A stretch of 64,000 nt of DNA from Escherichia coli (lineage in GTDB: Bacteria; Pseudomonadota; Gammaproteobacteria; Enterobacterales; Enterobacteriaceae): the NCBI RefSeq assembly GCF_024223415.1, contig NZ_CP100500.1, one strand, 5' to 3'. Both the position numbers and the translations under genes were made by a program. Positions 1,544 to 50,169 of this stretch are shown one piece after another (within the stretch, counting starts at the first letter, position 1; the number at the start of each line of letters is the position of its first letter). The notes under the pieces were generated by a model that was not told the DNA's origin, searched no databases, and saw only the letters and a program-made list of their open reading frames with translations.

Positions 1544-1718
1544 AAATGCTTCCTTTGTCGTAATGCGTGTCGGTTATAGCAGCAATTACCGCTACAATAG
1601 CGACAATAGCTGCTCTTTCAACAATGAATGCTGGAAATTCTGTTTATCAATTAAACTTCTGGCTAAATTATTCTTATGCTTCTTTTTCCTCCTGAGGTGA
1701 TCACGTGATGACAAAAAC

Positions 1719-2015
1719 TTATCTGCTCATGGTCATATCTGAAGAAAGCGTATGTCGCACTTCGTCATTAACACCTTTTACTGCTGATCTGGCTGGTACA
1801 GTATGTAAAGTAAGCCATTCGTCAATAGCTGATGAACGCCAGCCCACAGAACCACTACCAAGACGTACCGGCCTTGGGAAGGTTGCATCGTAATATTTCG
1901 ATAACGGATTCATTTTTTCGTAAATTGTCGAACGAGATATACCTAACAATTGGCTCAGTTCAGGCATCCGTAAGATGCGTGAAGGAGTCCAGCAGTGTCC
2001 GGATTGATCTGGCAT
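1719..2015 (-). CDS. AlpA-family (prophage CP4-57 type) transcriptional regulator
   Basis: Motif ILRMPELSQLLGISRSTIYEKMNP...YDATFPRPVRLGSGSVGWRSSAIDEWL matches the AlpA helix-turn-helix pattern; start trimmed to the internal Met (MPDQ) of track ORF 1719..2114. Confidence 0.6.
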   Translation of the reverse strand: MPDQSGHCWTPSRILRMPELSQLLGISRSTIYEKMNPLSKYYDATFPRPVRLGSGSVGWRSSAIDEWLTLHTVPARSAVKGVNDEVRHTLSSDMTMSR

Positions 2016-2237
2016 TTTATCCCCCTTAGTGTGGTGAACTGTCGTTACAGTTTGTATTCCTCGGGTAAATTTTTCTGCGTAAAAAAATGGGTTGAGCAAA
2101 AAGACAATAAACAACTAAAAATCAATATGATAGGAAACAACAGCATTATTGTTATTTTACTTTTCCCTTATCGCTGTCGATTCTCATTATCATTCATGGC
2201 AAAAAAACAGTAAAAGAGGCCCTAGTAATGACTCCGG

Positions 2238-2630
2238 TCAGTAGTACATGTGCTTCGATAAATGAACCAATGGCTTTTCGTTAATTTCCACGGAGCGTGA
2301 AAAGCAAATCGTTTTCAGGGATGGGAGTTTGATGTGAGTACGAAGTATCAGATTGTTGCGCTCAATGCGCCGGGTAAATATCCTGCCGACAGGATGCTTA
2401 TCCTGTGGTACTTCTCTGGTATAACTGCACCAGTTTTCACTGGTTATCATGCCTGAGGAGAATGGCTTCAGAAGTTCCGGCAACTCACTACATGTTTCAT
2501 CAGTACGAGGACCAAAAGTGTAAGCCCGCACACCGCCAGATTTGGTGTTATACGCATACCAGAGCCAGTGCTGACGAGCTTTGTTTCCGACAAAGCTCCA
2601 TTGTTCATCAAGTTCGCATATAAGCGCCAC
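2238..2630 (-). CDS. insB: IS1-family InsB-like transposase ORF
   Basis: MALICELDEQWSFVGNKARQHWLWYAYNTK...TRRIERNNLILRTH aligns with IS1 InsB ([23 protein letters not shown]...TQRIERHNLNLRQH); the frame continues upstream of the first Met. Confidence 0.6.
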   Translation of the reverse strand: MALICELDEQWSFVGNKARQHWLWYAYNTKSGGVRAYTFGPRTDETCSELPELLKPFSSGMITSENWCSYTREVPQDKHPVGRIFTRRIERNNLILRTHIKLPSLKTICFSRSVEINEKPLVHLSKHMYY

Positions 2631-2659
2631 ATCGGCACTGGCGACTGGAGATGTGGTTA

Positions 2660-2916
2660 CTTTGCATGGTGAGCGTTTTTTAAAGTGCGAATGACTGTGT
2701 TGATACCCACCTTCAGTGTTCTGGAGGTATCGCGAACCCCGGTTCCGTTATGAGCCATTTCAACGATTTGCTCTTTAACACTTGGTTTTCGGGCTTCGCA
2801 GGTGTAATTCAGTTGAAATACACGTTTGCAGGAGCGGCACTGGAAACAGTGCTGTGACCGTGACGGTACACTTTATCGGAATTACAGCGGGGACAATGTA
2901 CGGTAACTGTTGCCAT
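2660..2916 (-). pseudogene. insA: IS1-family InsA-like ORF with an apparent frameshift in the N-terminal zinc-finger region
   Basis: Reverse translation gives MATVTVHCPRCNSDKVYRHGHSTV then a stop; another frame continues QHCFQCRSCKRVFQLNYT...VEMAHNGTGVRDTSRTLKVGINTVIRTLKN, which is InsA-like. Confidence 0.45.
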
Positions 2917-3111
2917 ATGGACTCCGGATACCAACAGAATACCCCATTAATCTGCCCCCGGAAGTCATCCCGGTGCCTTCTGACATAATCTGTTAATACA
3001 TGAATTATTGCCCTGTTCAGAAAATATTAATTAAAAAATGAAAACCAGTTAACAGAAAAGCCACATGACATAATGTTAAAATTTTATATCGTGCAATAAA
3101 AGGAGAATGTT

Positions 3112-4938
3112 ATGTACAATTTTATCACTATAATGTATGATGTCTTTTCATGTTTTGGTGTTCTGGCTAAAAACCAGAATATCCGTGACATCCGAAATAT
3201 TAAAAACTTTTCCTCACATCAACATTCACTGGCCGACATGTTTGATGAATTAACATACATTATTGACAAAGAACAGGTACTGAGCACAGAACAACGAAAA
3301 GTTATATTCAGGAGATATGAAGATCTGTATGTTAAACTCATGCACTATTCTGTTTTTACAGACAAAACACATCAAATAATAAAACAAAAATATTTTAATG
3401 ATGTTGTTCCAATGATTCTCGCGCTCGACATCAGGAACACATATCGCCCGGATAATGAGATGGCATTTTACTATCATATCCATTCTTTTCTCACTCAGAT
3501 ACCGGATAATGAGGATGATATATATCATGCTGTAAGGACATATATGAGAAATTATGTTAAGTTATGTTTATCCGGATACACACCAACGAATGCGCATTTC
3601 AAAAATATCTTTGATGGAGTATATGAATTCATTCGTAATATTCGCAAAAACAGTACACCCGGAAAAACAAAACTTATTGCAGCTATCAACATATGCAAAG
3701 AAGCCTGTAAATATCTGCTTTGTTTAAGTGATAAAGACAAGGAAATAATATTTTCCGACTTAGATAAAATTCAGGTTGCATGTTATTCTCTCACTATATT
3801 ACTGGCTTTCGAAAGACGAACATCATTAACAAGTAACCTGGCAACTTTATATAAAATGCTGATAAACGAAAGAGAAGTTTCAGAATATGAATGTCAGCAA
3901 TTATATTTAATCAACCCAATAGATGTAATGAATATACTGAACAAATACATATATTACTTCCCTGGTGAGAATTCACCTCTTTATACACTGAAAATTGACA
4001 GTGCATTATCGTGGGATGCCATTGATGCAATACGAGACTATAGTATTTCTGATATTTATCTTTATCCTGAACAAAAAACAATAAATTGTATCGTTGAGAT
4101 TGAAAACATTGTCTTTGGCGGTTACATTTATACATTGAGCGACGGCGTCACATTACAAAATATGGAAAACACTTTAAAAGATTCCTCATGTCATTATGTA
4201 TTAAATGGCTATACAGAATTTGTTAACTGTTTAAGACAACTTACTTCAGGAAAGACTGAAAGTGTTCAGCGTACCATTAATAAACTGGAGTACGAAAAAT
4301 TACCTTTTGGATTTATCATTGCCGCGTTTGCTATATTAAAAATAGCATTTAAGATAAAGTTCAGTAAAAATCATGTAAATACCAGGGCATTATTAAATGA
4401 CATCAGTTATTTTATGACTTATCAGGGCGAGTCCATTAATCTTATTTCACTGGATCATGAATATCCAGAGTTCCGTCTTCAAAATGACACAAATACATAT
4501 TTATTGGGAAGGATGATATTTCTATATAACTCAATGATCTATAAATTCAGAAACTGCCAGGAACATGAAACCAATAACATTAACTCAGTTATGATAAATA
4601 ACCTATTACAGGAAGTTGATATAGCCCTTGGTAAAATAAATGACATTATAGACAGCAGAAACATATCAGTCCCCCATGAACTGGCAAATATTCTTATCCA
4701 CGAAAAAATACTTACAACACGTGAAAAAAAAGGAAACCTGATAAGCCTGTTTGATGGATTCACTTTATTCCATTGTGTTGGAATGATAACCTTTCTTATC
4801 CATTACCTCAGAACTCCTGAAGAAAAAGTAGAAAATGTATTTATGTTATATGGTGCAGATAAAAACAATAAACTACGCAGAAGACTGATTTATGATGCAC
4901 TAGAAATAATTCAGTCTCAGCAGGAGATGAAACCTTAA
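3112..4938 (+). CDS. Hypothetical 608-aa protein; AT-rich orphan cargo gene with no recognisable motif
   Basis: Long ORF with canonical AAGGAG Shine-Dalgarno 8 nt upstream of the ATG; AT-rich composition; no P-loop, HEPN, nuclease or transmembrane signature seen by eye. Confidence 0.8.
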   Translation: MYNFITIMYDVFSCFGVLAKNQNIRDIRNIKNFSSHQHSLADMFDELTYIIDKEQVLSTEQRKVIFRRYEDLYVKLMHYSVFTDKTHQIIKQKYFNDVVPMILALDIRNTYRPDNEMAFYYHIHSFLTQIPDNEDDIYHAVRTYMRNYVKLCLSGYTPTNAHFKNIFDGVYEFIRNIRKNSTPGKTKLIAAINICKEACKYLLCLSDKDKEIIFSDLDKIQVACYSLTILLAFERRTSLTSNLATLYKMLINEREVSEYECQQLYLINPIDVMNILNKYIYYFPGENSPLYTLKIDSALSWDAIDAIRDYSISDIYLYPEQKTINCIVEIENIVFGGYIYTLSDGVTLQNMENTLKDSSCHYVLNGYTEFVNCLRQLTSGKTESVQRTINKLEYEKLPFGFIIAAFAILKIAFKIKFSKNHVNTRALLNDISYFMTYQGESINLISLDHEYPEFRLQNDTNTYLLGRMIFLYNSMIYKFRNCQEHETNNINSVMINNLLQEVDIALGKINDIIDSRNISVPHELANILIHEKILTTREKKGNLISLFDGFTLFHCVGMITFLIHYLRTPEEKVENVFMLYGADKNNKLRRRLIYDALEIIQSQQEMKP

Positions 4939-4961
4939 ACAGGAAAATTATTTTTTATAAA

Positions 4962-4986
4962 CAGGGGATTATTGAGTAATCCCCTG
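4962..4986. terminator. Hairpin between the convergent 608-aa gene and int
   Basis: Inverted repeat CAGGGGA...TCCCCTG flanked by A/T runs. Confidence 0.35.
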
Positions 4987-5122
4987 CTCATCAAAACCCA
5001 CTTTCCTGACAATCTGATAACTATCAGCTCAATACATTTGACATAAAAGAGATCCCTTAATTATTACCGTTACGGTCACAATCACATATCAAATCATGAT
5101 TGTACAATATACATTTTCACTA

Positions 5123-6325
5123 TTATTTATTCATAATCTGAGACATCACATAATCCGCCCATGCCTGCATCATCGGTACACGCTGCTCCAGTAGATCAGT
5201 ACGATGATATGCCGCCTCAACCTTATTTTTCAGCGTATGAGCGAGCGCCCTTTCAGCCAGATCCCGCGAATACCCCTGCTCACTACACCAGTCCCTGAAT
5301 GTTGAACGAAAACCATGTGCCGTGGCGACTCGCCCCGGAATATCACTGACGGCTTTCTTTTTACGCAGAAAACTGGTCAACACCATATCTGAAAGGATCT
5401 GCTGCTTTCTGGGTGAAGGAAACACCAGTTCATCATGCAGACCACGTATATTTTCCAGAATGTAAATAGCCTGTCGGGATAAAGGAACACGATGCTGTAC
5501 CCTGGCTTTCATTCTTTCTGCTGGTATCGTCCATATCTGCTTATGAAAATCAATTTCAGTCCAGCGCATTCCCCTGGCTTCACCCGAGCGGGTTGCTGTA
5601 AGTATCACCATTAATAACAATGCGCGGGTAACATTATAGGGTTCATCGGTATACACACTGGTCGCCACAAAAAGCGGTAACTGCCTCCATGGCATTGCGG
5701 GTTGGTGTTCATCACGTCCTCTTGTCTGCTGGGGAAGCAAATGATCAACCACATCCACAGGATTTGCCACACAAAAACCATGTGCCCATCCCCACTGCAT
5801 AACAACATGAATGCGCTGTTTAACCCGGCTTGCCGTTTCTGACAAAGTTAACCAGACTGGCCGCAGTGTTTCTGCCACGTCCGCAGCCGTAATCGAATCC
5901 AGCGTTTTCGCTCCCAGTTGAGGAAAGGCGTAATTCTCAAGCGTCGATAACCACTGCCGGACATGCTTTGGATTTTCCCATCCAGGAGACAGTTCTGCAT
6001 GTACACGTCTGGCTGCATCGGCAAATGTTGGGATAACAACTTTTTCAGCCTCAGCCTTTTTAATCTCCAGAGGATCATCACCAGCAGCAAGTTGCTCTCG
6101 CATTATCCGGGCAGTACGTGCAGCTTCAGCAATGCTGATCTCAGGGTAAGTTCCCAATCCAGCATTACGCCTTTTTTGTGTCACCGGACTTACATAACGA
6201 AAAACCCATTTACCCCGACCCTTTACTGAAGAAGGATGAAGGGTCAGTCCTGTAATTCCCCCATGGGGCAATGGTTTGTCATCAGGTTTGATATGCCTTG
6301 CTTTCGTATCCGTCAATACTGCCAT
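5123..6325 (-). CDS. int: Tyrosine integrase, P4/CP4-57 family
   Basis: 400 aa; C-terminal catalytic region HGFRSTFRDWCSEQGYSRDLAERALAHTLKNKVEAAYHRTDLLEQR is typical of P4-like integrases. Confidence 0.9.
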   Translation of the reverse strand: MAVLTDTKARHIKPDDKPLPHGGITGLTLHPSSVKGRGKWVFRYVSPVTQKRRNAGLGTYPEISIAEAARTARIMREQLAAGDDPLEIKKAEAEKVVIPTFADAARRVHAELSPGWENPKHVRQWLSTLENYAFPQLGAKTLDSITAADVAETLRPVWLTLSETASRVKQRIHVVMQWGWAHGFCVANPVDVVDHLLPQQTRGRDEHQPAMPWRQLPLFVATSVYTDEPYNVTRALLLMVILTATRSGEARGMRWTEIDFHKQIWTIPAERMKARVQHRVPLSRQAIYILENIRGLHDELVFPSPRKQQILSDMVLTSFLRKKKAVSDIPGRVATAHGFRSTFRDWCSEQGYSRDLAERALAHTLKNKVEAAYHRTDLLEQRVPMMQAWADYVMSQIMNK

Positions 6326-20548: not shown

Positions 20549-20581
20549 CTCTTCTGTCTCATTGTGTACATCCTAAAGGCA

Positions 20582-20611
20582 AAATGCCAGCCCGATCGGC
20601 TGGCATTTTTA
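20582..20611. terminator. Bidirectional terminator between cspD and macB
   Basis: AAAATGCCAGCC-CGAT-CGGCTGGCATTTT hairpin flanked by A and T runs. Confidence 0.6.
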
Positions 20612-27562: not shown

Positions 27563-28019
27563 TTAGCATTGGCATTTTATCTGCCCTGGTTGTTTTATCT
27601 TCGACGTTACAAACCGCACGGGTGTTGGTGGCGTCAAAATCGCTGAAGCGTTCCCCGAAGGCCGGGGCAGCCCACATGGATGTGGGCTGAGGGCGCGTCT
27701 TACAGGACGTTACCTCGCGCCCGACCCGGTAGCAGAAGGGGATAAGCTGAAGGTACCGCGCAGCGGCGATTTTTTTCGCCAGAGCCCGGGGGGGCAGGGG
27801 GCGGCGGCGACTGGCCGCCCCCTGCGCGCTCCCTGCGCCAGTGGCTTTATATGGCATTGCACATGAAAGGAGCGCAACAATGCTAAACACTCATATAGAA
27901 TTAAAAATCCCCCTCTGATGCATAACATTTCCTTTTAATTGCAACTTTACTCGTCCTTCCGCTTTCAGTAGTGTGACATCGCGCATTTCGACTTCTTTCT
28001 TTGCAAGGGCTGGGTTTTC

Positions 28020-44640: not shown

Positions 44641-44801
44641 TCTTATAATAAAGACGGACAACTCACTAAGTTGTCCGTCTTTTTTTATTTCATGTAAATT
44701 ATTTAATCATATTTATTGCATATAAATTCACTTGATGGCATTGTTATCCCATGCCGCAGACACGGCCAAAAATCATAAGATTGCCAGACGGGAGTTCCAT
44801 C

Positions 44802-45533: not shown

Positions 45534-45583
45534 TTATTCATTTGCCGGAGTGGGCGAACACCCATTCCGGCAAAATCACTTCT

Positions 45584-47065
45584 CTACGCTAATCCCAGGC
45601 GCTGAAACTGCTCTGGCGGCGCATCATTATCTTTCATCAACTGAATCAGCAACGCGATCATCCGGGACTCGATCACATCATCATGAATCGGATGTAGCTG
45701 CTGCGGATCGTTTTGCAGATCAAACAGCAAATGACCAAACTGATTCAACCCCTTATATTTTTCCTGTGCCGGGATGCGTAATACCTGTAACCCTTTGGTA
45801 AAACGAAACGGTGGGGCCAGCGATAAAGCCCGCATCTCATCCACCGGATAGCGGCTGTTCATTTTACAGGACATCAACGTGTAGTTGGCAATATCATCCT
45901 CACGCCCCGGCAGCGCTGCACGCATATACACATAACGCCCATCAGTTACGTTAGCATGACCACTGAAAACACCAAACATCGCCGAGCTGCGTACTGGTTC
46001 ATCGTGACTGACCGTTTTCGCCAGCGGTTGCCCCTGCACATCGGGCGGCACTGGCTGTTGAAAAAAGTCATACAACGTTGGCGCCCAGTCGATCATTTGT
46101 ACCAGTGCCTGTCGCCGCTCTCCTTTTACACCACTGCGCGGGTCCCAGATAAACAACGGATTATTGGCAACTTCGTTGTAATAAGGCATCTGGTTTTTCG
46201 CCCACCAGCCATGCTCACCGAGTAAAAAGCCGTGGTCAGTGCCGACAATCAGCATGGTATCTCGCCACAGATCGTGCTCATCCATCAGGTCGAGAATGCG
46301 CCCCAGGTTGCGATCGCACATCGACACCAGCGAACGATACCGGCAACGGATGTGCTCCACGGCCTCGTCGCTTTCCTGCACCCGGCCACGCGGCCAGTCA
46401 TAATGCGGTCCATCCCAGTTATCTTCATACAAGGAAAGATACTCTTCCGTTGTGTGAAACGGCTCGTGCGGATCAAACGTTTCGACCTGCAATAACCAGT
46501 TATCTTCCGCGTGATTTTTGTGGATAAAGGCACAGCCTGCATCAAACACTTTAGTTTGTGGAAAATCCGCTTCCTGCTGAATATATTCCCGGTTTGCCCA
46601 GTCATGGCGCCACAGACCAGAAACACCGCCACCGGTCTGCTTTTGCGGCACCCGTAGCACCTCGGGAATAGGCGGTTGCGCAACGCTTGCATGCCAGTGA
46701 TCGCCTTCCTGTCCGCGCACAATCTCCCACGAACTGTAGCGATTATGATAATTCCCGCCGCCATCTTCCCAGTAATGCAAATGATCGCTTATCAGGTGGG
46801 TATAGATCCCCGCCTTTTTAAGCAGCTCCGGCATGGAATCGTCAAACGGTTCTAACGGCCCCCACTCCCGATGCAGGAAGTTACATCGCCCGGTATGCAA
46901 CTCCCGCCGGGCAGGCATACACGGCATACTGCCGACGTAACTGTTTTCAAAGGTGGCGGCATGAGCCGCCAGACGTTGGAAATTAGGCGCTTTGGTTAAC
47001 GCATCGCCATAAGGTGGCAGATAACGTTTATTCAGACTATCGAACAGTAGAATAATCGCTCTCAT
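45584..47065 (-). CDS. Cys-type sulfatase (alkaline-phosphatase superfamily), accessory
   Basis: 493 aa; CMPAR (C-x-P-x-R) formylglycine signature within GSMPCMPARRELHTG. Confidence 0.75.
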   Translation of the reverse strand: MRAIILLFDSLNKRYLPPYGDALTKAPNFQRLAAHAATFENSYVGSMPCMPARRELHTGRCNFLHREWGPLEPFDDSMPELLKKAGIYTHLISDHLHYWEDGGGNYHNRYSSWEIVRGQEGDHWHASVAQPPIPEVLRVPQKQTGGGVSGLWRHDWANREYIQQEADFPQTKVFDAGCAFIHKNHAEDNWLLQVETFDPHEPFHTTEEYLSLYEDNWDGPHYDWPRGRVQESDEAVEHIRCRYRSLVSMCDRNLGRILDLMDEHDLWRDTMLIVGTDHGFLLGEHGWWAKNQMPYYNEVANNPLFIWDPRSGVKGERRQALVQMIDWAPTLYDFFQQPVPPDVQGQPLAKTVSHDEPVRSSAMFGVFSGHANVTDGRYVYMRAALPGREDDIANYTLMSCKMNSRYPVDEMRALSLAPPFRFTKGLQVLRIPAQEKYKGLNQFGHLLFDLQNDPQQLHPIHDDVIESRMIALLIQLMKDNDAPPEQFQRLGLA

Positions 47066-47076
47066 TACGCCCTACC

Positions 47077-47397
47077 TTATTGATTAATTAAATGCGGATA
47101 ATGATGCTGAACCACTTCATAAATTTGCTGACCAATAGTTTCACCGTCCATAATATTCTCTATCGGGATCAGATATTGCCCTTGTTTCGGGTCAAGACTA
47201 ACCACATCGAGTAATTTTTTGGAAATAGCAAAAATATCCGCCCAGTCGGTAAATCCGCCGACTTCACCTGCGGCGGTATGTTCCATTTCAACTTTGAAAT
47301 CATATTTGGTCAGCGCTTTTTTAACGACCGTTTGTAACATAACGCTACTGCCTACACCGTAACCACAGACAAACAGAATATTAATTGTATCTTTCAT
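47077..47397 (-). CDS. PTS EIIB component (ascorbate/lactose-type), accessory
   Basis: 106 aa; MKDTINILFVCGYGVGSS with a phosphorylatable Cys. Confidence 0.8.
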   Translation of the reverse strand: MKDTINILFVCGYGVGSSVMLQTVVKKALTKYDFKVEMEHTAAGEVGGFTDWADIFAISKKLLDVVSLDPKQGQYLIPIENIMDGETIGQQIYEVVQHHYPHLINQ

Positions 47398-47418: not shown

Positions 47419-48744
47419 TTAACCCGCGTAAGGACCAAGATGGAATGTTGCAGCGATAAATTTCAGAACTTCACAAATAGCAGGCCATACGGTTGCCCAG
47501 TCAAATATTCCTGTCCAGCCGACGCCATTTTCAGCAAGCCCGGTTAACGGAATAGCCCACACCGTACCGAAGGTCTGAATAATACCCAGCAAGAACGTAC
47601 AGATAATTACGGAACGGTATCCGCCCATGCGGTTTGCTAATACGCCAATTGGACCGCCAGAGAAAAACAGAGGTACAAAGCCAGGCAATACCATAATTGG
47701 GCTGTGAACCAGTAATAAGATCCCCATCGAAAAAATGGTGCCAAAAGTACAGAAGACGAAGCCTAACGTTGCGGCATTGGGTGAAAAAGGTAACAGCGCT
47801 GCAACATCGACAGCAGGAATAGCGTTAGGAATAAAGCGATCTTGCCAGCCTTTAAACGAACCGTTAATTTCGCCCACCATCATGCGCACACCCTGCAGCA
47901 GAATGACCATATACATGGAGAACTGTAAGCCAAGGTTGATGATATAGATGTACCAGGGCTTGCCTTTCGCCATTAACTGGACATTATCGATACCCGTTGA
48001 TAGCAAGAAACCACCGACAAACAGCGTCATCACAATGGCGATAGCCGTTACGTTATGGTTAAAAATCGCCAGCCACCCGGGAAGTTTCAGGTTTTCAGCA
48101 TCGTGCTTTTCAGGGTCACCAAATTTATGGGCGAATTTGGAGAAAAACCACAATCCCAACATCTGGTTATGAGCAATGGTAAAACCGGCATCTTTGGTAA
48201 CTTTGGCAATGGGCTTAACAATGAGCGTGGTGGAGAACGCCCAGAATACACCCGTTAATATTCCGGCAATAATAATTGATGTAGTCCAGCTAAAACCCAG
48301 CCAAAAGACAATCAACCATAATACCGCCTGAGAATGTGAAACACCGGTATTCCCTGTCAAAAATATCCCTTTGGCACCTGTATACCGACCAAATAATACC
48401 AGCAGCAGGTTGGTAAAAAACGCCAGTACAAATACATACCCGACATAACCAAAATTATCCCCCAATGCAATTTGCGTTGCCGCTTTCATTGCGTAGGAAT
48501 CCATTAAATATCCGTGAACACCATAGGCTTTACTTACGGCTTCTGCTACCGGTTTAAATGTTGCGGAAAACTGGAAACCACCAAATAACACCATCATTAA
48601 TCCCACCATGGCGCTGACCATGCCGGTAATAATTTTTATTGGCGATTTCTTATCAAGGGCATAACCAATACCCACCAGCAAACCAATTAAAATTGCCGGT
48701 TCAGTTAAAAACGTTTGAATAACATCTATGAATTTGGCAAACAT
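47419..48744 (-). CDS. PTS EIIC component (ascorbate-type, UlaA/SgaT family), accessory
   Basis: Polytopic membrane protein; start trimmed to MFAKFIDVIQTF. Confidence 0.8.
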   Translation of the reverse strand: MFAKFIDVIQTFLTEPAILIGLLVGIGYALDKKSPIKIITGMVSAMVGLMMVLFGGFQFSATFKPVAEAVSKAYGVHGYLMDSYAMKAATQIALGDNFGYVGYVFVLAFFTNLLLVLFGRYTGAKGIFLTGNTGVSHSQAVLWLIVFWLGFSWTTSIIIAGILTGVFWAFSTTLIVKPIAKVTKDAGFTIAHNQMLGLWFFSKFAHKFGDPEKHDAENLKLPGWLAIFNHNVTAIAIVMTLFVGGFLLSTGIDNVQLMAKGKPWYIYIINLGLQFSMYMVILLQGVRMMVGEINGSFKGWQDRFIPNAIPAVDVAALLPFSPNAATLGFVFCTFGTIFSMGILLLVHSPIMVLPGFVPLFFSGGPIGVLANRMGGYRSVIICTFLLGIIQTFGTVWAIPLTGLAENGVGWTGIFDWATVWPAICEVLKFIAATFHLGPYAG

Positions 48745-48952
48745 CGTCGGAACGCCCTCCATAAGCGTACATTTCCGTTGTCAATGCATGAACCTTCTGC
48801 TGACGTTAATAATGTCTCAGGAAATTTTGTGTTTCGCTAAGCAATGCCTCTGTATGTATTTGGTAAGTGCACTGTAGTAATCAAAACAGTTCAATTAAAG
48901 ATCTTATTTGATTATTTGTGATTTGATTTGCAAAAATAGAGCAATATATAAC

Positions 48953-48988
48953 CGTGATCGATCGGTTATTATTAATCGATCGATCACG
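48953..48988. promoter_or_regulatory. Perfect 12-bp inverted repeat CGTGATCGATCG-N12-CGATCGATCACG (operator candidate or rlmC terminator)
   Basis: Lies between the PTS operon start and the rlmC 3' end; each arm contains the palindrome GATCGATC. Confidence 0.5.
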
Positions 48989-49041
48989 ATTATTATTTTG
49001 AGTGAATAGTTGTTGCCGAAAAATTTACTGCCGTGATGTAT

Positions 49042-50169
49042 TTAAATTTTTACCAGCAGTGTCAACACTTCATAATGCGCGGTGTGCGGGAACATATCGA
49101 AAAGCTGCACCCGTTCAATGCGATAACCAGGCAGTTCTCGGATATCTTTCGCCATGGTTTGGGCGTTACAGCTGGAGTAGATGATAAAACGCGGTGCCAT
49201 CGTTGAGAGATAATCACACAGCGGTTTACCAATGCCGCGGCGCGGCGGGTTAACCAGCACCAGCTCCGGCACCTCCCCCTGAGCGGTGGCAAACTGAGTG
49301 GAGTCCAGCGCCTGAAATTGCAAACGCGTTAAGCCCAGTTCAGCAGCTGACTGCTTTGCACAGGCAATGGCCTCTGGCGCAATTTCGATCCCGGTTAACT
49401 GCATGTCAGGCGTCGCGCAGTGTAAACCAAAGCCCCCCACGCCGCAGAACAGATCCCACATATGTTTAACCGGCAGCTGTCGTACCCAGTCGCGCGCGGT
49501 AGCGTACAGCTGGCTGGCGACCGCCGGATTAGTCTGGAAGAAACTTTGCGGACGGATCCACAGCGGAACATCGTTAAAACGCTCTGCCAGCGCCTGTTGT
49601 TCGGTCAGGTAGATCTCCGTCTTCCCTTCCATAATCGCCATATGTACCGGCTGAATATTGACGGTGATAACTTTTAGCTGCGGCAATTGTGCCTGTAACC
49701 ACGGCAATGCCTTACGCAGTTGTGCCAGTTTGGTTTCAGAACGCAGTACAAAGCGCAGCATCATGCCGCCATCGCTCTGGCTTTCAGTCAGCAGAATGTA
49801 TTTCAGTTCGCCACGCTTACGCGCCACGTTGTAGGGCGTTAACCCCGCTCGGGCGATAAACGGTTTTAGCGCCGCAAAAACGGGCGCAAATGAGGCAGGA
49901 TAAAGCGGGCAGTCACAAAGGTCTTCCGGTGTGCCGTCTCGATGCAGCATACCGAGCAGTGGTTTTTCAACGCTACCACTCACCACCATTTTGGCTTTAT
50001 TACGAAACCCTTGTTCCGGGCCTGACACCGGCGCGCACCATTCCTCAACCGGAAAGTCGGCGAGCAGATTTTTAAGATCGGCGGTTTTAGCGGAGAGTTG
50101 CTCTGGAATCGGCTGCGTTATCCACTGACAGGAACGACAGCGACCCGCGTCGTAAAGTGCGCACTGCAT
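49042..50169 (-). CDS. rlmC: 23S rRNA (uracil747-C5)-methyltransferase RlmC
   Basis: 375 aa; N-terminal Cys cluster [16 protein letters not shown] and a SAM-methyltransferase fold. Confidence 0.9.

Follow-up and report, generated by a model that had tools for sequence, protein, structure and literature searches.

A conserved palindrome between rlmC and an accessory PTS-sulfatase operon of Escherichia coli as a possible terminator-like 3' hairpin

What does a perfect inverted repeat do in the spacer between an rRNA methyltransferase gene and an accessory sugar-transport operon? The stretch of Escherichia coli DNA analyzed here (64 kb; hereafter, the window) contains such an element downstream of rlmC and upstream of three genes that encode two PTS components and a sulfatase. 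A preliminary description suggested that the repeat could be an operator for an unlinked regulator or a bidirectional terminator, and considered methylation-sensitive regulation through its GATC sites conceivable. The element and the genes around it are as follows.

48953..48988, no strand: core palindrome CGTGATCGATCG-GTTATTATTAAT-CGATCGATCACG, found as an exact match; perfect 12-nt arms CGTGATCGATCG / CGATCGATCACG around a 12-nt A+T spacer
48965..48976, no strand: spacer or loop of the palindrome, unconserved in sequence and length (12 nt in Escherichia; 11 nt of different sequence in Salmonella)
49042..50169, minus strand: rlmC (23S rRNA m5U747 methyltransferase), from the RefSeq annotation of an identical locus
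47419..48762, minus strand: PTS EIIC of the EIIC-GAT (UlaA/SgaT) family
47077..47397, minus strand: PTS IIB
45584..47065, minus strand: sulfatase with a CMPAR (Cys-type) motif, its N-terminus reading unlike a signal peptide

All four genes lie on the minus strand, with a spacer of 279 bp between rlmC and the EIIC gene, and artJ converges on the sulfatase gene from the other side of the insert. The three genes, encoding a UlaA-type EIIC, a IIB, and a Cys-type sulfatase, were found between rlmC and artJ in every E. coli locus that was inspected. Of 5426 complete E. coli genomes, 566 carry the rlmC-EIIC spacer, in each case as a single chromosomal copy. The island-bearing strains (~10% of complete genomes) include O157:H7, in which the operon corresponds to ECs0940-0942; in the Sakai strain, the palindrome occupies 1,024,987-1,025,022, between ECs0939 (rlmC) and ECs0940. 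No RefSeq feature is annotated under the palindrome. E. coli K-12, which lacks the insert, has 198 bp between rlmC and artJ, with a REP-like sequence inside. Because similarity to K-12 ends within the last two rlmC codons, the palindrome belongs to the three-gene insert.

Several other features of the insert were recorded. It carries no EIIA, regulator, or maturase gene. The sulfatase is putatively cytoplasmic, and the combination of such an enzyme with a PTS suggests the uptake of a sulfated sugar or sugar acid; a literature search retrieved no functional study of the operon (ECs0940-0942, Z1087-1089). In E. coli LP5-1, the EIIC gene has an internal stop and is annotated as a pseudogene, from which the operon appears to be decaying in some lineages. 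The annotated EIIC ATG (48762) sits within a GGAGG Shine-Dalgarno-like sequence (window 48742-48762), and EIIC in other genera and in the Sakai annotation (441 aa) begins at the ATG at 48744 (MFAKF...). The real start is probably ATG 48744, with GGAGG before it, which would make the 447-aa form 6 residues too long. Between the palindrome and the rlmC stop codon, a 40-bp segment (49000-49040) exists as two very different haplotypes with near-identical sequence on both sides. The first is shared by this window, an O78 genome, Escherichia sp. E1V33, and E. whittamii; the second is that of O157:H7 and most other strains. This pattern suggests that a recombination breakpoint lies at the edge of the island. 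Opposite, between the convergent artJ and sulfatase genes (45541-45574), an imperfect inverted repeat of 14 nt (TTTGCCGGAGTGGG...CCCATTCCGGCAAA) is likely a bidirectional terminator at that edge of the insert.

The palindrome is real, non-random, and conserved. It has no other match in the 64-kb window, even when up to three mismatches are allowed, and no match in any of 100 dinucleotide shuffles of the window. Perfect inverted repeats with arms of at least 12 nt and a spacer of at most 20 nt occur four times in the window, versus 0.07 expected in Markov-1 random sequence. The remaining three are found at 20581-20609, 27794-27825, and 44650-44682. The repeats at 20581 and 44650, the latter just upstream of artJ, have A/T-tract flanks typical of bidirectional terminators; the repeat at 27794 is very G+C-rich and has no U-tract. 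The arms proved longer than first noted, as the core sits within an imperfect repeat at 48948-48993, in which two 21-nt arms (48948-48968 and 48973-48993) are 90% complementary and lie 4 nt apart. The position first described, just 3' of rlmC and about 190 bp before the EIIC start, was likewise borne out: 53 nt separate the rlmC stop codon from the core (48 nt from the extended stem), and 190 nt separate the core from the annotated EIIC ATG. Each arm contains GATCGATC and hence two GATC sites, as initially described, except that the sites abut rather than overlap. The four GATC sites of the palindrome fall within 30 bp, versus approximately 1 per 256 bp expected, and a fifth is found at 48900-48903. 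The motif GATCGATC occurs three times in the whole window, two of them in the palindrome.

In RNA of the rlmC sense, the extended repeat forms a hairpin between two A- and U-rich flanks, as listed below.

48948..48993, minus strand: extended hairpin of the rlmC-sense RNA; 17 pairs, one A.C mismatch, 3 more pairs, and a 4-nt loop
48989..49000, minus strand: A-rich tract CAAAAUAAUAAU just 5' of the hairpin in the rlmC sense, corresponding on the plus strand to the T-rich tail ATTATTATTTTG
48943..48951, minus strand: U/A-only tail UUAUAUAUU directly 3' of the hairpin in the rlmC sense

The extended hairpin folds with -25 to -26 kcal/mol (z-scores of -5.4 to -7.4). Overall, the stability of the hairpin ranges from -19 to -26 kcal/mol, no shuffled sequence folded equally well, and no other strong structure was found in the rlmC-EIIC spacer. 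The base of the stem contains G+C (CGUG/CACG), and its closing pair is U.G or C-G. With 16-20 pairs and ~50% G+C, the stem is long for an intrinsic terminator. An Rfam search of 48500-49300 in E-value mode returned sub-threshold chance matches only (STnc550, 19.6 bits versus 48 needed).

Read along rlmC, the order of elements is CAAAAUAAUAAU-[stem-loop]-UUAUAUAUUGC, and these A- and U-rich flanks give the hairpin the architecture of a bidirectional terminator. A consensus scan flagged a terminator-like site at the hairpin only on the strand antisense to rlmC, both in E. coli (tail ATTATTATTT) and in Salmonella. The sense strand was missed partly because maximal extension of the stem with G.U pairs absorbs the UUAU of the tail. 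If the U.G/C-G pair closes the stem, the tail in the sense direction, UUAUAUAUU, presents nine consecutive A/U with 5 U in the first 8 nt and scores 2.68 on a simple weighted U-tail measure implemented for this analysis; closure one pair earlier lowers the count to 4 U in 8 nt and the score to 1.61. For the antisense tail, the measure gives 1.98-3.27, and clear terminators in the window reach 3.5-5.5. Thus, the U-tracts of the hairpin are interrupted and moderate rather than strong.

Like the bidirectional intrinsic terminators of E. coli, which consist of an A-tract, a hairpin, and a U-tract, the element comprises a stable stem-loop after a stop codon with a G+C base and complementary A-rich and U-rich flanks, and it is flagged by a consensus scan. 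It differs from them in its longer stem, in U-tracts that are broken by A (UUAUAUAUU, AUUAUUAUUUU), and in flanking genes that are arranged in tandem rather than convergently; moreover, it is known here from sequence alone. A second comparison is offered by K-12, where a hairpin at the rlmC stop codon (GAAGCCGCA-CAT-GCGGCTTTTTT) and a REP-containing spacer precede artJ. The K-12 hairpin occupies the same place, directly 3' of rlmC, and its better U-tract likewise faces rlmC from the opposite strand. However, it is unrelated in sequence, short, and G+C-rich, and it overlaps the stop codon; by contrast, the palindrome was brought in by the inserted PTS-sulfatase segment or originated inside it.

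Taken as a whole, there is about an even chance that the palindrome specifies an RNA-level terminator or insulator hairpin for rlmC that shields the PTS operon from read-through. As RNA polymerase leaves ybjO-rlmC, a stem of ~17-20 bp would form in the rlmC 3' untranslated region, and this stem, with its G+C base and the all-A/U tail that follows, would cause the transcript to be released or at least stalled. The 3' end left by the hairpin would be guarded from exonucleases, and the CRP-like, presumably inducible promoter of the operon, ~20 nt further on, would be insulated from constitutive read-through. Because an A-rich tract precedes the stem, the other strand has a U-rich tail, so the hairpin could also stop antisense transcription running towards rlmC. 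That polymerase actually terminates at the hairpin, and with what efficiency, we infer from these sequence features; a literature search retrieved no 3'-end mapping data for it. Termination is favored by the position after rlmC, the stability of the hairpin, its restriction to rlmC junctions, and a variable loop with kept pairing, as well as by the canonical bidirectional-terminator appearance of two of the other three perfect repeats in the window (20581 and 44650). The mediocre U-tracts, the overlong stem, and a scan that flags the antisense strand only count against it. Among the original proposals, that of a bidirectional terminator is the one favored by the evidence, through the strong hairpin, its A/U flanks, its occurrence at rlmC only, and its kept pairing; the U-tracts are only moderate. 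This terminator-like 3' hairpin has not been described before and is ordinary in kind.

The same hairpin might serve rlmC without releasing polymerase. After Rho-dependent termination or read-through, it could block exonucleases that attack the 3' end, or its near-perfect ~20-bp duplex could be cleaved by RNase III, parting rlmC mRNA from downstream RNA. A hairpin that is strong and conserved but has mediocre U-tracts, on a stem longer than is usual for terminators, would suit either role. The hairpin at the rlmC stop codon of K-12 is nearly devoid of a sense U-tract (tail score 0.43), so rlmC may usually manage without a canonical terminator on the sense strand. On the other hand, the nine consecutive A/U after the stem suit release through the RNA-DNA hybrid, and stabilization or processing, the two roles taken together, appears unlikely, although it deserves more weight than the alternatives considered below.

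Further insight came from the distribution of the palindrome relative to the operon. A protein-guided scan with one genome per species identified the orthologous operon in 31 loci, from other Escherichia, S. enterica subsp. arizonae and diarizonae, Leclercia, Silvania, Yokenella, and many Firmicutes. Every locus retrieved from Escherichia and from Salmonella arizonae/diarizonae has the palindrome, and at each of them rlmC is the immediate upstream neighbor of the operon. In Leclercia and Silvania, where the upstream neighbor is a divergent arylsulfotransferase gene, neither the palindrome nor any other hairpin was found. In Yokenella, the palindrome is also absent, and an unrelated 9-bp G+C hairpin lies at the stop codon of a co-directional histidine-kinase gene upstream; the operon is still located between rlmC and the art genes, with an msrPQ-like pair and a two-component system intervening. 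The palindrome tracks an immediately upstream rlmC and not the operon promoter.

In Yokenella regensburgei, the stretch between rlmC and the operon (1660-5690) holds a small His-rich-looking ORF, the msrPQ-like pair (a molybdopterin oxidoreductase and a cytochrome b561), and an OmpR-type two-component system. The operon of Leclercia and Silvania is accompanied by the arylsulfotransferase gene, by radical-SAM/SPASM (sulfatase-maturase-like) genes, and by a gene for a YidE/YbjL-type transporter.

Just downstream of the palindrome position, a block of ~70 bp is common to Escherichia, Salmonella, Leclercia, Silvania, and Yokenella. It consists of TTTTGCA-N7-TCACAAA, followed by AATCA/TGATT repeats and then TA(C/A/T)(A/G)GT, and the AATCA/TGATT motifs form an inverted repeat of their own (AATAATCAAA...TTTGATTAYT). 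Its parts in the window are as follows.

48871..48932, minus strand: putative promoter module of the PTS-sulfatase operon, conserved in five genera and assigned as a promoter by prediction
48917-48932, minus strand: CRP-like site TGCAAATCAAATCACA (TGCA-N7-TCACA), in the module
48871-48876, minus strand: -10-like TACAGT, in the module

The -10-like TACAGT would set a start ~61 nt downstream of the CRP-like site, and 48871-48932 is likely the real promoter/operator region of the operon. Because this five-genus block lies downstream of the palindrome, the palindrome is outside the conserved control region of the operon. It is located upstream of both the module and the CRP-like site, at approximately -89 to -124 by the inferred promoter, a position poorly suited to a repressor.

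These findings bear directly on the proposal that the palindrome is an operator for an unlinked transcription factor, which could bind either two in-phase GATCGATC boxes (centers 22 bp apart) or one long dyad. The operators of sugar-PTS repressors (such as DeoR-family UlaR/GatR for the UlaA/GatC-type PTS, or the LacI/GalR family) travel with the promoter, usually with an adjacent regulator gene. The palindrome resembles them as inverted-repeat DNA upstream of an operon for an EIIC-GAT family PTS, yet differs in following neither a promoter nor a regulator gene, and we know of no operator consensus that it matches. In favor of an operator, the dyad symmetry is perfect, and the island has no regulator gene of its own; in addition, the arms have changed less than the spacer from E. 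coli to Salmonella, and a G-C to A-T double change described below retains the symmetry. Nevertheless, the palindrome is missing from the orthologous operons of Leclercia, Silvania, and Yokenella, all of which retain the module, the element is single-copy in all 566 genomes, and half-sites in the window are limited to chance-level matches inside coding regions. The genera differ by 1 bp in spacer length, some natural arm variants lack the symmetry, and the other metagenomic occurrences of the motif are unrelated microsatellites or coding DNA. With the module persisting where the palindrome does not, the operator proposal found no support and is improbable.

A BLAST search of 5426 E. coli genomes with the 52-bp element reported two places in each of 566, which are the two strands of one palindrome; no second copy was found by this search. 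Scans for TGATCGATCG-N10-14-CGATCGATCA, a pattern that demanded perfect arms and to which arm variants are invisible, returned one viral and at least 120 metagenomic matches. Microsatellites of GATC/GATT and high-GC coding DNA make up nearly all of these; 13 homologous metagenomic matches have the same flanks and represent the same rlmC junction. The literature search, which extended to EHEC Term-seq and to unmethylated GATC sites of O157, likewise found nothing on the palindrome site.

Four other candidate explanations were considered and set aside. With one site per genome in 566 genomes and no Rfam family, the element is not a dispersed intergenic repeat of the REP/BIME, ERIC, or MITE kind. 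It is not an integration or recombination site either, as no copy or half-copy was found at the other end of the island or in the window, and no integrase gene is present. A promoter at 49019-48992 (TCGGCA-16-AATAAT), which would place the palindrome at +1, matches consensus at 9 of 12 positions, a chance result (3 found versus 1.8 expected); its -35 shifts by 3 nt in the O157-type allele, and no promoter-like site was called in Salmonella. Finally, inspection by eye for a divergent plus-strand promoter feeding the hairpin revealed only weak candidates, whose -10 has no final T.

Natural variation was examined in an alignment (A4) of ten distinct palindrome sequences from Escherichia and Salmonella. 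The spacer is ATTAATAATAAC or ATTAATATTAAC in Escherichia and ATAAAAAAC(A/T)C in Salmonella, where it is 1 nt shorter. Substitutions in the arms, which are more conserved than the spacer, are mostly pair-preserving. For example, pair 23-56 is GC in six sequences, GU in two (E. coli alleles), and AU in two (both from Salmonella), and pair 21-58 is UG in five, CG in four, and UA in one. At pair 23-56, the observed G.U state is intermediate in the change from G-C to A-U. Paired cells amount to 97.9% in the rlmC-sense RNA, 95.9% in the antisense RNA, and 94.3% for a strict Watson-Crick dyad; the strand preference from wobble pairs (97.9% versus 95.9%) is weak. Covariation involves ~5 substitution events, and the observed score was reached in 30 of 500 shuffles. 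The alignment thus offers modest indications that pairing, not sequence, has been conserved among relatives, with few independent events, and the covariation appears supportive rather than conclusive. The G-C to A-T double change also keeps the DNA dyad, so a protein-binding site is not excluded by covariation alone.

In three E. coli genomes, including KK05-19 (locus ~3001-3048), one arm has suffered a 4-bp ATCG slippage deletion, and this allele re-registers into a 16-pair stem of -21.6 kcal/mol. Six variants, one of them the deletion allele, were folded, and all form hairpins of -20.7 to -28.5 kcal/mol (z of -5.8 to -8.6). Symmetry is broken in the arms of the 2017C type, of S. diarizonae, and of the deletion allele; one GATC site is lost in S. 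diarizonae and another in KK05-19. The spacing of the half-sites is 12 in Escherichia versus 11 in Salmonella, and that of a natural E. coli variant differs by 4 bp.

The palindrome could also be a functionless relic, formed at the island edge when an ATCG repeat slipped and inverted, and kept only by recent common descent. The sequence is indeed simple and (ATCG)n-like, a slippage deletion is observed, comparable GATC-repeat palindromes have originated separately in numerous unrelated metagenomic contigs, and the element adjoins the hypervariable 40-bp segment at the island edge. Against a relic, the pairing has been retained unbroken in Escherichia species and in two subspecies of Salmonella in the face of strong divergence in the loop and in the flank next to rlmC, and the arm substitutions mostly preserve pairs. 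A relic is thus a rather doubtful explanation.

Two proposals involving methylation remain. A more elaborate one invokes the two GATCGATC boxes, spaced 22 bp in Escherichia and 21 bp in Salmonella (~two helical turns), as targets of a chromosomal regulator from outside the island whose binding is modulated by Dam/SeqA. If true, control of this horizontally acquired operon, in EHEC and in other E. coli, would be coupled to replication or subject to phase variation, but the proposal is highly improbable. The established Dam switches of pap (GATC-I/II, Lrp) and agn43 (OxyR) have GATC within defined Lrp or OxyR sites located over or beside the promoter. The palindrome shares with them a GATC cluster in a regulatory spacer upstream of an accessory operon; unlike theirs, its GATC sites form part of a hairpin stem upstream of the promoter module, are conserved only in part, and coincide with no evident protein site of that type. 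That the four GATC sites themselves form an epigenetic element, differentially methylated or SeqA-bound to give methylation-sensitive or phase-variable expression, is scarcely credible despite their clustering in 30 bp and the rarity of GATCGATC in the window, as the cluster follows from inversion of one ATCG-repeat arm, individual sites are lost in some lineages, inspection recognized no Lrp- or OxyR-like site at the palindrome, which is not inside the promoter module, and the portions of the literature consulted contained no methylation data for these sites and no report of their undermethylation, leaving the early idea of Dam-sensitive regulation without support.

If the terminator reading is right, the palindrome ends the ybjO-rlmC transcript in ~10% of E. 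coli, O157:H7 included, and the accessory operon stays under its own promoter. Such knowledge would be of use in annotating transcription units, and reporter fusions that start downstream of 48948 would avoid the hairpin. The consequences are small, and no new mechanism is revealed. The putative promoter module at 48871-48932 is the more useful by-product of this analysis, as it is the better place to seek the regulator of the PTS-sulfatase operon.
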